Assembly: GCA_030055465.1 (NCBI GenBank)
Contig: JASFYF010000001.1
Location: forward strand, 163,179-227,178
Reading direction: 5' to 3'
Length of the DNA: 64,000 nt
Source of the DNA: Candidatus Nezhaarchaeota archaeon
GTDB lineage: Archaea > Thermoproteota > Methanomethylicia > Nezhaarchaeales > WYZ-LMO8
The position numbers and the translations under genes are program-made. The stretch's first letter is position 1; each line of letters starts with the position of its first letter. The notes under the pieces are model-generated. The model did no database searches. It saw only the letters and a list, made by a program, of their open reading frames with translations, and was not told the DNA's origin. Of the stretch, positions 43,135 through 60,955 are shown in pieces.

Positions 43135-43845
43135 ATGGCAGCTTTAAGGGCCGTCGCCTACTCAAGGACCTCAACCGATATGCAAACGACCGAGCAGCAG
43201 ATAAACACGATAAAGGACTACGTTGCCACAAACGGCATTGAAGTGGTGGCGTGGTTCAGCGACCCCGACGTTTCTGGTGCCATACCAGCGCTTGAGCGCG
43301 AAGGCTTCAAAGAAATGCTGCACTACATAGAGCAAAACGGTATAACAGCCATAGTCGTCTACGCCATAGATAGGCTTGGAAGAAGCTTCATGGACATATT
43401 CAAGACCCTGAGTGAGCTTGACAAGAAGGGGATAACCGTCATAAGCATAAGGGACAGGTTCCTTCAAACCCTCGACCCAAACATCAGGAGGCTTGTGCTG
43501 GCAGTTTTAGCATGGGCCTCCGAGTACGAGGTTAAGCTGACGAGGGAGAGGGTTAGGCTAGCCATGAAGAGGAGGGAGGTTCAGGAGAAGATCGAGAAGA
43601 TAAGGAAGGTCAACAAGATCTACGCGGAGACGAGGCAGCTCATAAAGCAGCTGTACACCCAAGGGTGGAGCCTCCGCAAAATATCGAAAACCATGAACCT
43701 CAGCCTCTACGCCGTCCGTAAAGTTCTTGTGTGCGAAGGAGTTTTAGATCCCGGAAAGCAGAGCTGCCCCCGATGCGGACATAAGCTGGTGTGGGACGAC
43801 ATAGAGAGCACATACAAGTGCAGGTCCTGCGGCTACAAGTCATAG
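43135..43845 (+). CDS. Small serine recombinase (resolvase/invertase type) with C-terminal HTH and Zn ribbon
   Basis: AVAYSRTST (catalytic Ser), IDRLGR, EYE...RER, HTH QGWSLRKISKTMNLS, CPRCG...CRSCG. Confidence 0.9.
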   Translation: MAALRAVAYSRTSTDMQTTEQQINTIKDYVATNGIEVVAWFSDPDVSGAIPALEREGFKEMLHYIEQNGITAIVVYAIDRLGRSFMDIFKTLSELDKKGITVISIRDRFLQTLDPNIRRLVLAVLAWASEYEVKLTRERVRLAMKRREVQEKIEKIRKVNKIYAETRQLIKQLYTQGWSLRKISKTMNLSLYAVRKVLVCEGVLDPGKQSCPRCGHKLVWDDIESTYKCRSCGYKS

Positions 43846-57260: not shown

Positions 57261-57742
57261 CTTCAACGTGAAGATATCCTGCAGAGGAGCATTTAAAAGT
57301 CCCCCGGTACCTAGAGGGCAAAGCATTAATATTGGTGAGATGCCTAAGCATAAGCCACACCGGAATTCACGGATGGTTACACTCCTAGGGTTGGAAGAAT
57401 TAGATCTTGCGGTGTAGGGGCTCTCCACAAGCATAACATTAACCTTCAGCAACTTTAGTGAAGGTAAGGCGATGCCAGGACAGCACGCTTCTTAATGACG
57501 CGTGGCCCTCATGACTAAGGCCTTAAAACCATCCAAGAGCGCGGCGGAGCGTAACCCCTTGATGTCGCTGGGACCTGAAAGCAACCTTTAAGGATTGTTG
57601 CCGCGCTGTTAACTTTGGAGCTGTTATAAATAGGCAGGAGAATTGTGCTACAGTTGCCGTCGCACCCCCTGTTCATGCTGCTCCTCTTATCCCTAGCCCT
57701 GATGCCCTTTTGTGGCTGTACTCTATTCCTAGGGCTTTGGCC

Positions 57743-58493
57743 TTGAAGCGTATATTTTCTACTCGATCTCATGCTTTCTGGGCTAGATTTAATCGTGATC
57801 CTTTTAGGGTTTGGGGCATGTTCACACGACTAGCCTTGGCTTTCCAGCCTCTAGGTGTCAGCATGTCAGCGAGCTACGTCATCGCTCTAGTGATGATAGT
57901 GGCATCTATGACGCTCAGCGCAGTTAATGTAGTGCTCGTCGAGGTTCCCAGAAAGGTGGTTGTGCCCCACGTGAAGTACGTGACCATGTACGTGACCATA
58001 TTCGGGGTGCCATACTCGGTGCCAGAGCTCAGATTCGTGAGCTCTAAGACGCTAATAGCCGTGAACGCCGGGGAAGCCGTTGTACCGCTCTTCGTATCGG
58101 TTACAGTATTGGCGCTCATCTCTATGCAGAGGACCTCTCTAACAGCCATCACAGCCACTTTGGTTGTTGTTGCCGCGATCTCTTCCACATCCTACATGAC
58201 CTCAAAGGTTGTCCCCGGGGGTGGGCATCGTCGTACCGGCTTTGATGCCTCCTTTAACGGCTGCAATGTCACCGCTGCTCCTGCTGAGCGCTCTAAGCCT
58301 AGCAGAGCTCGCCCCAGCCGCATCATATGTGGGAGCCGTCTTAGGGACCCTCGTGGGTGCCGACCTAGTGAACTTGGTAAAGAACTTCGATAAACTACAG
58401 GCACCTCTCGTGAGTATAGGCGGAGCGGGGACCTTTGACGGGATTTACCTAAGCGGAATAACCGCTCTGCTGTTAACACTCCTTTTTGTCTGA
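57743..58493 (+). pseudogene. DUF1614 family membrane protein, frameshifted
   Basis: Split over ORFs 57710-58393 and 58209-58493. An extra G in the G5 run at 58217-58221 breaks VVPG/VGIVVP. C-terminal GADLVNL...SIGGAGTFDGI. Additional probable shifts in the N-terminal part. Confidence 0.8.
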
Positions 58494-58656
58494 GAAGGCA
58501 TAATAAGCAAAACAGCCGGAGCTCTGGTTGTGGTAGCGGATTACAACCTGAAAGCCTCGCCGTTTAGGGCTGGGATGATGATGTGGTAAGGTTTATAATC
58601 TTTGTATCCTCTAGTGTATTCTGAAATAGCCGTGGGGAGGCGACTCTCAGACGTGG

Positions 58657-59058
58657 CTTGAGCTTAAGAGCACTAGGCATGCCAGGTACTGGTGCGGCTA
58701 TCACTTCGTGTGGATACCTAAGCACCGTAGGGATGTTCTCGTAGATGCTGTTGCTGAATACACTAGAGAGGTGCTGAAGCAGATACTCCTCGAGCTCGGC
58801 TGTGAGCCTATAGCCATCGAGGTTCTACCCGATCATGTACACGTGTTCTGCTCATGTCCTCCACGGCTATCCCCAGCCTACGTGGTGAACTACCTTAAGG
58901 GTAAAAGCGCTAGGAGGTTACTACAGAGGTTCCCAGAGCTGAAGGCTGGTGCCAAAGGTGGGCTGTGGTCTAGAAGCTACTTCGTTGCAACGGTTGGTAA
59001 GGTGTCGGCAGATGTCGTTGAGAGGTATGTGGTGGAGCAGTGGGAGAAAGAGAGGTGA
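58657..59058 (+). CDS. tnpA: IS200 TnpA (Y1 HUH transposase); canonical start codon missing
   Basis: ELKSTRHARYWCGYHFVWIPKHRR, DHVH, YLKGKSAR, LWSRSYF, RYV. In-frame upstream there is CTT, not ATG/GTG/TTG. Confidence 0.85.
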   Translation, partial: LELKSTRHARYWCGYHFVWIPKHRRDVLVDAVAEYTREVLKQILLELGCEPIAIEVLPDHVHVFCSCPPRLSPAYVVNYLKGKSARRLLQRFPELKAGAKGGLWSRSYFVATVGKVSADVVERYVVEQWEKER

Positions 59059-59400
59059 AGAGAACGGCGACGCTGAGACTAGTACCGGACAGAGATTCCG
59101 GGGGCAAGCTCAAGCTGCTGTGCTCGCTGTCAGCTAAGCTCTGAAACGAGGTCAACTAAGTTGGCGAGGAGAATACATCCACGACTTGCCCGCTCCGTAG
59201 AGCCAAAGACGGATACCGCAAGAGAGTATGTAGAGGATTACTGAGATGCTACAAACGCAGTAGGGTGTTCAACGCAGACCTAGCAGAAGCACACAGCATA
59301 ATGCTCAAAGCGAAAACCATACCCCATGCGGGTTTAGGGGTAACGCGCCCGAGACCGGGCGCAGGGCTAAACCGGGAGTGTAGCTCTAAACCCCCCCGGA
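59055..59400 (+). pseudogene. tnpB: tnpB relic with two nonsense codons and a large in-frame internal deletion
   Basis: MKRTATLRLVP...SAKL*NEVN* joined to EENTSTTCPL...RGLLRC...FNAD. Confidence 0.85.
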
Positions 59401-59432
59401 ACCCTCATCCTTTAGGGCGGGGAGGAGATCAA
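59330..59432 (+). ncRNA. Putative omegaRNA (reRNA) scaffold of the IS605 right end; guide would continue into 59433 onward
   Basis: GGGGTAACGCGCCCGAGACCGGGCGCAGGGCTAAACC hairpin and right-end hairpin retained; position matches the TnpB omegaRNA paradigm; expression unproven. Confidence 0.5.
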
Positions 59433-59434
59433 CG

Positions 59435-60880
59435 TTAACTCTCAGCTTCTCGTTGGTGTAGGCGTTCCACAGGAGCTGCGCGCTCAATGTTTATGCAGCC
59501 GGGGTCTGGACCGGTGACGAGACCTAAATAAGCGTAGGCCCTAGCCCTGCATCCCCCGCACACGTACCTGTAACTGCATCTGCAACATGGTTCCTCAAAG
59601 TCATCCCTATTCCTTAAGCATAGGAGCAACCTTGATGTTGCCCATATATCCTCGAAGCTTCGCTCCCTAAGCGAGCCAACCTTAACGGGCAGGAAAACGC
59701 AGGGAACTACATCGCCGTTCGGCTCTATGGCGGCGTATATTCTGCCGGCGCCGCAGCCTCCTATAAACTCGGCTAAAGCCACTGTTGCAGGATCAGCAAC
59801 AACCGCGAAGTGCGTTGGAGCTACCACCCTGCCGCAGCTCTCCTGTATAGCTACCCTAGCCAGCTGGGGAGCTGTGGATAATACCTCGATCTTCCTTGTG
59901 GTTGCAAGCCTGTAGATCACCTTCAAGATTTCCTCCCTCTCCTCGGGGGTTAAATCCCACATTGAGATTTCCGTGCCCCTGCCCACAGGTATAAAATTGA
60001 AGAACACCACCCTTCTGACCCCAAGTTCCTCGCATAAATCAACGATCTCCTCAACCTCATGCTTGTTTAAAGAGGTTAAAGTCGTAGCCACCCCTGTTGT
60101 CAGGCCTACTTCAACGCAGTTTCTTATTCCTCTAACAGCCTTCTCCCATGCTCCTGGGAGGCCCCTAAAACTATCATGTTTCCTCGGGTTCGCTGAGTCC
60201 AAGCTGACTTCAACGTATCTCACACCCAAGTCCTTGAGCTTTTCAGCCATGCTCCTAGATATTAACGTACCATTCGTCGCCACCGAGACGTAGATGCCTC
60301 TGGAGGCAGCTTCGCGCGCCACAACCGGAAACTCTGGGTGGAGCAGCGGCTCTCCACCCGAAAAGGCCACAGCCGCTACGTAAGCCCTATCAAGATCATC
60401 GATTACTTTAAGCTTCTCCTGCAGGGTCAACTCGTCGGGTAGGGGCTTCTCAGCCCTTTGATAGCAGTGCTTGCACTTCAAGTTGCACATGCTGGTGAGG
60501 TTCCACACGACCAAGAACGGTGCGGGTAGCCTCTGGGGTTTAGTGACGCCGTATTCGGCTATCCCCCTCAATACTAGGGCCAATCCCCTTCTAACAGCGG
60601 GATCCCTGACGTAGTCCTTAACCGCGTCTGAATCTAGGCGCATCAGCCCAACGATGGCACTCAGGGCGAGCTTCAAAACGTAGGTGTCCAGCCTGCAGAG
60701 GCTTAACAAGTGTTGGTCATGCTCAACTAGAAGGTTAAGGGCGTGTTCTAACCTAGACTTATAACCGTGAGGGCATTCGGAAGTCGTGCGCCTTATCATT
60801 AACCGGAAAAGCCTGTTGCCAGCAGCCAACCTTATGGCCTGCACCAAGCCCTTGATGTTCAAGGGCACCGCCGAGAACAT
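59435..60880 (-). CDS. Radical SAM/SPASM protein with N-terminal extension (NirJ/AhbC-like family)
   Basis: VVWNLTSMCNLKCKHCY, SGGEP, GCGAGR...PC, CCRCSYRYVCGGCRARA. Confidence 0.9.
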   Translation of the reverse strand: MFSAVPLNIKGLVQAIRLAAGNRLFRLMIRRTTSECPHGYKSRLEHALNLLVEHDQHLLSLCRLDTYVLKLALSAIVGLMRLDSDAVKDYVRDPAVRRGLALVLRGIAEYGVTKPQRLPAPFLVVWNLTSMCNLKCKHCYQRAEKPLPDELTLQEKLKVIDDLDRAYVAAVAFSGGEPLLHPEFPVVAREAASRGIYVSVATNGTLISRSMAEKLKDLGVRYVEVSLDSANPRKHDSFRGLPGAWEKAVRGIRNCVEVGLTTGVATTLTSLNKHEVEEIVDLCEELGVRRVVFFNFIPVGRGTEISMWDLTPEEREEILKVIYRLATTRKIEVLSTAPQLARVAIQESCGRVVAPTHFAVVADPATVALAEFIGGCGAGRIYAAIEPNGDVVPCVFLPVKVGSLRERSFEDIWATSRLLLCLRNRDDFEEPCCRCSYRYVCGGCRARAYAYLGLVTGPDPGCINIERAAPVERLHQREAES

Positions 60881-60955
60881 ATGGCGAGGGTCGAAGAGAA
60901 AAGCTTTGCCCCCTCAAGTTCATTGGCTCCAAGCGTGCCCACTTCAAGGGCCGAC

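Follow-up and report, generated by a model that had tools for sequence, protein, structure and literature searches.

A probably immobile IS200/IS605 copy with deleted tnpB and a damaged omegaRNA scaffold in a Nezhaarchaeota genome

In IS608, the cleavage tetranucleotides are recognised through pairing to guides of four nucleotides, which lie 5' of the hairpin feet, and assembly of the transpososome requires this pairing (He et al. 2011, PMC3201880). Palindrome-associated transposable elements (PATEs) are known from haloarchaea and Geobacillus (Dyall-Smith et al. 2011, PMC3119063; Gomes-Filho et al. 2015, PMC4615843; Meers et al. 2023, PMC10055086), and for these the idea of a use in trans by both TnpA and TnpB has already been published (PMC10055086). 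Archaeal RNAs of the sot0042/HgcC type overlap the 3' ends of tnpB genes (PMC4615843). Here, we describe an insertion sequence (IS) of the IS200/IS605 family from a Candidatus Nezhaarchaeota archaeon. It lies in a stretch of 64,000 nucleotides, the whole of which is referred to as the window (contig JASFYF010000001.1, positions 163,179 to 227,178). The element is of the IS605 type, i.e., it is derived from a form with both tnpA and tnpB, and this copy is probably dead or dying and no longer mobile.

The element covers 888 bp of the forward strand (58545-59432) and starts directly 3' of a TTAC. Its membership in the IS200/IS605 family is beyond chance, as tnpA matches Pfam Y1_Tnp with E = 1e-35 and a covariance model of the right ends of the family gives 105.8 bits (E = 6e-33). 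Several features expected of the IS605 type are found: a Y1 TnpA, subterminal hairpins and a fixed tetranucleotide on the 5' side, with neither a target duplication nor inverted repeats. Along the forward strand, the left end is followed by the motif TTTATAA, tnpA, a remnant of tnpB that overlaps the end of tnpA, a G+C-rich structured region and the right end, see Table 1.

In a large protein collection, the closest TnpA (P0001, 93% identity) belongs to a metagenome-assembled genome (MAG) from Thermoprotei. The identity of 93% is to proteins annotated as IS200/IS605 transposases. The contig of P0001, here locus L066, carries a complete element of 1825 bp with tnpA and an overlapping tnpB of 436 aa. 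Relatives of this TnpB were found in public genomes at thirty further loci, from Desulfurococcales, Sulfolobales, Bathyarchaeia and other MAGs. The comparison of the ends is based on these loci and the related genomes, with 20 right ends and >30 left ends, all with unrelated flanks. In 62 genomes of the same class as the window, the best TnpA match has 47% identity, i.e., there is no close relative among them. The IS family as such is widespread in hot-spring archaea.

The largest change in the element is the loss of most of tnpB. The alignment to L066 covers positions 1-631 of the complete element at 88% and positions 1534-1819 at 77%, and nothing else. About 900 nt (positions 632-1533) are thus gone, and the deletion is in frame. 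The element has no full-length tnpB, and from the TnpB of L066 it aligns with residues 1-39 and 341-419 only. Both stop codons of the remnant fall in the motif LWNEANY, where TGA (59142-59144) replaces a conserved Trp and TAA (59157-59159) replaces a Tyr, and two zinc ligands have decayed (CPLC to CPLR and KH to KR). Measured against L066, the ratio of nonsynonymous to synonymous changes (dN/dS) is 0.29 in the C-terminal piece and 0.16 in the N-terminal piece, compared with 0.07 in tnpA, i.e., the remnant evolves faster than tnpA. Scans of the genome with Pfam found neither Cas12f1-like_TNB nor any other TnpB domain at the remnant.

At the deletion junction there is no convincing microhomology. 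The 18-mer spanning the junction has three exact matches in metagenome contigs, all due to chance (18-21 nt without extended similarity); therefore there is no sign that this deletion derivative has spread. In other genomes, copies of this IS family carry independent deletions, either internal or on the 5' side (L034 in G008:C39, L090, L085 and L095), all with different breakpoints. For example, L034 keeps the left end, a TnpB C-terminus of 163 aa and the right end, and is without tnpA.

The gene for the transposase, which the original prediction did not mention, is present (58630-59058) and retains the HUH motif and the region of the catalytic Tyr. Its start, however, is out of frame. The GTG start used in the family (58632-58634) is followed by one inserted base in GTGGGGAGG, at the G run 58635-58638. 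The three closest relatives read TAGCC-GTG-GAG-GGC-GAC, while the element reads TAGCC-GTG-GGG-AGG-CGA-C, with one base more (GTGGAGGGCGAC in the relatives compared with GTGGGGAGGCGAC here). From the out-of-frame GTG, translation ends after nine codons. In the long frame itself, there is no ATG, GTG or TTG before the GTG at 58708, which is codon 27 and lies within the first conserved strand (YHFVWIPK). The gene is therefore better labelled as a pseudogene in annotations. The TTTATAA upstream is a putative promoter element of tnpA. Homopolymer or indel errors throughout the assembly were considered as the cause of the frameshift. In this contig, five large genes for aminoacyl-tRNA synthetases have unbroken frames (477-1067 aa); such a general error is thus unlikely, while a local one is possible.

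Both ends are recognisable and both are changed. The left ends of the family, each following TTAC, have the form AACTGAAAG-CCTCGCCC-TTTA-GGGCGGGG, and the right ends the form GGAAC-CCTCGCCC-TTTA-GGGCGGGGAGGAGGTCAG, with sequences diverging directly after TCAG. In the family, the guide AAAG goes with TTAC on the left and GAAC with TCAG on the right. Compared with the consensus CCTCGCCC/GGGCGGGG, the left hairpin of the element has two uncompensated mismatches, and the right hairpin CCTCATCC has a single uncompensated A-C mismatch. As single-stranded DNA, the left end is predicted to fold with -3.0 kcal/mol and z = 0, no better than shuffled sequence. The left linker AACCTG exceeds the consensus AACTG by one base.

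The final base of the right end is G (GTCAG) in 19 of the 20 relatives and T (TCAT) in L070, while the element has TCAA. With the guide GAAC, the last pair of the element becomes C-A, and the complementarity of the right end is lost at this position. By analogy, the pairing rule of IS608 would apply to this right end as well. In L070 (3275-3334) the guide is GAAA and the motif TCAT, a compensating change compared with the 19 other right ends, i.e., guide and cleavage motif covary. This covariation agrees with IS608, in which a Watson-Crick pair at the last position is the rule.

To describe the RNA scaffold of the right end, the last 170 nt of the 20 relatives were aligned and a covariance model (R1) was built from them. 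The consensus has 36 pairs, and a third of them (12/36) show compensatory double changes. It consists of a nested first stem (CCCC..[YCCCG..CGGGR]..GGGG), a second stem (GCGCC/GGCGC or GGGCC/GGCCC), a nested third stem and a long-range helix (CCUCCCC/GGGGAGG). Of these, the middle stem (GCGCC/GGCGC) is retained in the element, as is the outer third stem. However, a deletion of 13 nt has removed the 5' arm of the inner first stem, which is present in all 20 relatives, and this loss is unique to the element. A second deletion, of 11 nt, has removed the inner third stem, and in the long-range helix a U-A pair has become C-A (CCUCCCC to CCCCCCC).

These losses are also seen in the scores. The family model gives 105.8 bits for the element and 149-178 bits for the intact close relatives, and the predicted fold has -56.4 kcal/mol (z = -1.5) compared with -83.2 kcal/mol (z = -6.4) for the RNA of L066. 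In Rfam, HgcC (RF00062) matches the element with 25.8 bits, below the gathering score of 50, and no match to sot0042 (RF02656) was found at E up to 1. Intact relatives match sot0042 and HgcC at the expected place, below the gathering thresholds of 88 and 50; the scores of L033, for instance, are 53.6 and 37.8 bits. The predicted long-range helix of the consensus (alignment columns 135-141 with 178-185) borrows the 3' arm of the right-end DNA hairpin. The same bases can therefore serve either in the RNA fold or in the single-stranded DNA fold that TnpA recognises, but not in both.

The original prediction had read this locus as a minimised IS605 element that lost tnpB and kept both ends and the scaffold. 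The IS605 type, the in-frame deletion and the recognisable ends agree with our analysis, but ends and scaffold are damaged. A tnpB cut down to N-terminal codons and joined in frame to the zinc-finger/RuvC-III tail, with two stops, is exactly what the alignment gives (34 codons, TGA and TAA). For the proposed IS608-like logic of the ends, TTAC, AAAG, GAAC and TCAA are all in place, but TCAA departs from the TCAG of the family and mispairs with GAAC. The description of the 3' hairpins as intact does not hold, given the 13-nt and 11-nt deletions in the scaffold and the A-C mismatch in the right hairpin.

The assembled DNA consists of a single contig of 1,024,082 bp (C1) with 32 tRNAs and a completeness of 67%, i.e., roughly a third of the genome is missing. 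The ends of the contig were compared for an overlap indicating a circle, and there is none. The only tnpA in the contig is the element's own, and there is no intact TnpB of any kind, as all TnpB-like matches are in short or broken frames of at most 247 aa. With the TnpB of L066 as query, the best match in the contig outside the element has 35% identity over 129 aa and is a fragment (C1:43282-43656). The clear TnpB-like genes of the contig are from other, more distant subfamilies and are all split by frameshifts or stops (C1:42977-43698 on the reverse strand, 654263-655450 on the forward, 791661-792865 on the reverse, 793083-793388 and 798325-799499 on the forward). Within the window, a weak match to the zinc ribbon Cas12f1-like_TNB (PF07282, E = 0.0015) at 43759-43839 (C1:206937-207017) lies in a frame of 247 aa and is not a TnpB.

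A DNA search of the contig with the whole element found only itself, so it is single-copy there. The family right-end model finds four further places in the contig, all relics, and a pattern search adds a lone left end, see Table 1. The two solo hairpins (TTAC-..CTGAAAG..hairpin..GTCAG) consist of the 5' half of a left end fused to the 3' half of a right end. One solo hairpin of the contig adjoins a tRNA gene. The contig thus holds only relics of this IS family and no working protein component.

The element is located between a gene for a DUF1614 membrane protein, which ends at 58493 on the forward strand, and a radical SAM/SPASM gene. According to the sequence and the open reading frames of 58200-59800, these two genes are convergent and separated by 941 bp, of which the element makes up 888 bp. 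As the original prediction had noticed, the right end (59432) lies 2 bp from the stop codon of the radical SAM/SPASM gene (59435-59437). Its view that the flank that would serve as guide is antisense to the 3' end of that mRNA is correct as geometry; nothing indicates a function.

In three species of a neighbouring genus (G003, G004 and G005), the DUF1614 and radical SAM genes are also convergent and adjacent, without an IS between them. The alignable gene ends are less than 90 nt apart in all three and 1016 nt apart in the window, and the insertion is therefore restricted to the lineage of the window. The exact empty site TTAC-CGTTAA could not be recovered in relatives, where the nearest genomes are only about 70% identical, and the gene order was compared instead. 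The radical SAM/SPASM protein is 67-69% identical to its orthologues in seven related genomes. The DUF1614 gene (57710-58493) has one G too many in the run CCCGGGGGTGGG at 58203-58225, which breaks it into two frames. The protein of a relative (253 aa) matches frame 2 as far as about 58225, and from 58203 onwards it matches frame 3. Divergence is far greater in the N-terminal part of the DUF1614 protein than in the C-terminal part (40% compared with 69%).

Table 1. Features of the IS200/IS605 element, its flanks and the relics of the same family in the contig. Positions refer to the window, or to the contig where preceded by C1.
Feature	Position	Strand	Evidence or remark
TTAC target tetranucleotide, also the transposon-associated motif of TnpB; flank, outside the element	58541..58544	+	TTAC also precedes >30 related copies with unrelated flanks
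Left end: linker AACCTG, guide AAAG (58551-58554), hairpin CCTCGCCG-TTTA-GGGCTGGG (58555-58574)	58545..58591	+	
TTTATAA, putative archaeal TATA box of the tnpA promoter	58592..58598	+	Same motif at the same place in L066, L068 and L069
tnpA, Y1/HUH transposase, open frame of 142 codons	58630..59058	+	Pfam Y1_Tnp, profile positions 3-121; 93% identical to P0001
tnpB N-terminal remnant: GTG 59040, 34 codons, TGA, four codons (NEVN), TAA	59040..59159	+	79% identical to residues 1-39 of L066 TnpB
tnpB C-terminal remnant: zinc finger and RuvC-III tail, joined in frame after the deletion	59160..59330	+	Alignment to L066
Remnant of the omegaRNA (right-end RNA) scaffold	59289..59432	+	Family covariance model, 105.8 bits
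Right end: guide GAAC (59399-59402), hairpin CCTCATCC-TTTA-GGGCGGGG (59403-59422), cleavage motif TCAA (59429-59432)	59399..59432	+	
Hypothetical omegaRNA guide flank CGTTAACTCTCAGCTTCTCG	59433..59452	+	Antisense to the final five codons and the stop codon of the radical SAM mRNA; sequence and open reading frame coordinates
Radical SAM/SPASM gene, unbroken neighbour outside the element	59435..60880	-	Pfam Radical_SAM E = 1.5e-32, SPASM E = 4e-11
Decayed PATE-like relic L098 with TATA box and remnant of the omegaRNA scaffold	C1:579211-579375	-	37.8 bits
Solo hairpin L100, about 40 nt	C1:6175-6217	+	Left/right hybrid, clear
Solo hairpin L099, about 40 nt	C1:875694-875736	-	Left/right hybrid, clear
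Right-end-like relic L101, about 50 nt, ends in GGTCAG	C1:about 903230-903290	+	
Lone left-end relic	C1:704719-704754	-	Pattern search

We suggest the following history for the element, in which the anatomy is observed, while the order of the events and the loss of mobility are inferred from it. The element would have entered the short spacer of the convergent DUF1614 and radical SAM genes by single-strand "peel-and-paste" insertion 3' of TTAC, catalysed by TnpA. A single internal deletion would then have taken about 900 bp of tnpB. The remnant could have drifted from there, gaining the two nonsense codons and losing zinc ligands as well as two small parts of the scaffold. Changes in the ends would have weakened the hairpins, and the cleavage motif of the right end would have lost the identity of its last base. 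Finally, one inserted base would have shifted the start of tnpA out of frame. The outcome would be an element that neither moves nor programmes a nuclease, with the remaining scaffold as a leftover of the deletion.

The assembled part of the genome offers neither a working transposase nor a cognate TnpB, and therefore the element should be neither mobile nor able to programme a nuclease. Several observations weigh against this. About a third of the genome is unassembled, and a cognate TnpB or a second tnpA could be located there. Apart from its start, tnpA is intact and under strong purifying selection over the divergence from L066 (dN/dS 0.07), and therefore the frameshift is recent, or it could be a local assembly error in the G run. 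Longer left-end linkers are also found in the apparently intact relatives L068 and L092, and the extra base in the linker may thus be harmless. The scaffold of the element scores level with those of the distant relatives L079 and L080, which lie downstream of long TnpB matches. Further, L083 (3126-3286), which follows a full-length TnpB match (residues 1-431), is also without the inner third stem, and this suggests that the stem is dispensable.

If the shifted start is an assembly error or is bypassed, the element could still be a mobile, IS200-like derivative with tnpA only, whose TnpA moves the element and also the PATE and solo-hairpin relics. The open frame of 142 codons with its HUH and catalytic Tyr regions and the low dN/dS would fit with this, as would the conserved TATA box and the recognisable ends. 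The extra base falls in a G run, and DUF1614, some 400 bp upstream, has a second frameshift of +1 G; together these could point to a local sequencing problem. However, long housekeeping genes are without indels, TCAA is mismatched to GAAC where the family has TCAG, and mismatches are found in the left hairpin (two) as well as the right (one). There is also only one copy in the genome, and the junction 18-mer has no true match in metagenomes. Continued mobility is therefore unlikely, and we regard a dead or dying copy as the probable state of the element.

The original prediction had proposed that the element is a donor of guides for a TnpB acting in trans or a source of antisense RNA, and for neither did we find support. 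As a guide donor it would provide an omegaRNA without a protein, and the guide at 59433-59452 would direct a TnpB encoded elsewhere to the empty site TTAC-CGTTAAC, so that the element is retained. It is true that the last 144 nt are still recognised with 105.8 bits, that part of the genome is missing, and that PATEs of about 220 bp in related genomes keep exactly this scaffold (L033 with 150.7 and L028 with 121 bits). The trans use of omegaRNAs encoded by PATEs has also been proposed by Meers et al. (PMC10055086). Against this stands that 1.02 Mb of sequence hold no cognate or intact TnpB. A search for a full-length tnpB was the check that the prediction itself had suggested, with the lack of a cognate TnpB counting against it, and none is found in the assembled part (67% complete). 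In addition, the inner first stem, which all 20 relatives have, is deleted here, so that two stems are lost in total, the fold signal is gone (z = -1.5), C-A replaces a U-A pair in the long-range helix, and the tnpB remnant evolves faster than tnpA. With ends and tnpA start damaged as well, we consider a guide donor very unlikely. The idea is better suited to the real PATEs of the related genomes than to this copy.

An antisense regulator appears to be the least probable of these explanations. Here, a transcript from the tnpA promoter would continue beyond the right end, overlap the radical SAM gene at its 3' end and modulate the mRNA of that gene. The geometry is correct, as the forward strand 3' of 59432 is complementary to that mRNA; the TATA box is conserved, and the forward strand of 58541-60900 has no run of at least five T and a single run of four T, at 60240. 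But any IS between convergent genes would look the same, and the geometry is thus an accidental result of the landing site. The relatives have the same gene pair without the insertion, and there is no conservation beyond that of the IS. It can be speculated, with only a slim chance of being right, that either a TnpB from the unassembled third loads the shortened RNA and cuts the vacated TTAC-CGTTAAC, or that read-through RNA tunes the radical SAM gene. If the version with TnpB were true, an element without tnpB would be retained by a nuclease that it no longer encodes.

On its own, the element is of little weight. What is new here is one more damaged copy of IS200/IS605, and the idea of a guide donor in trans is already published for PATEs. 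The related loci, however, form a natural series for one archaeal IS family, which ranges from full-length and tnpB-deleted copies through PATEs (about 220 bp) down to solo hairpins with a length of about 40 nt. Graded reduced derivatives of this IS are found in related genomes (L033 in G006:C29, L042 in G006:C34 and L028 in G006:C3, as well as L031, L036, L039, L050 and L091), with several copies per genome in G006, G008 and G040. Among them, L033, L042 and L028 are PATEs with a length of about 220 bp, in which the left and right ends and the complete omegaRNA scaffold are retained. The family model gives 108-151 bits for the true PATEs of the related genomes. In the related genomes, the solo hairpins (about 40 nt) have TTAC as their flank and GGTCAG at the end. 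The series shows the covariation of guide and cleavage motif at the right end, and which stems of the omegaRNA tolerate loss. The latter may help in trimming the guide RNAs of TnpB.

Compared with known systems, the element is most similar to IS608 of Helicobacter pylori and the IS605 group, in which tnpB follows and overlaps the gene of a Y1/HUH TnpA, in the same orientation. As in IS608, the insertion is 3' of TTAC, imperfect subterminal hairpins have a guide of four nucleotides 5' of each foot, AAAG pairs with TTAC at the left end, and there are neither inverted repeats nor a target duplication (PMC3201880). The distances differ, with 9-10 nt from TTAC to the foot of the left hairpin here and 19 nt in IS608, and with a right cleavage site that ends 7 nt past the foot here and 10 nt in IS608. 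The right motif and guide of the family are TCAG and GAAC, while IS608 has TCAA and GAAT. Unlike IS608, this copy has lost its tnpB, and its tnpA, its scaffold and its two ends are damaged.

PATEs are likewise reduced derivatives of IS200/IS605 that keep the left and right end, often with a right-end RNA; they do not code for proteins and usually occur in several copies. However, the element is single-copy, has a tnpA frame of 142 codons and pieces of tnpB, and with 888 bp is four times longer; it is not a PATE. Its scaffold is also less intact than in the real PATEs of its own family, L033, L042 and L028. As in the omegaRNA/sotRNA of TnpB (RF02656, sot0042) and in HgcC (RF00062), the RNA would extend from the 3' end of tnpB to the right end. 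Unlike these, the element is without two of the stems, has no match to sot0042 and stays below the threshold of HgcC.

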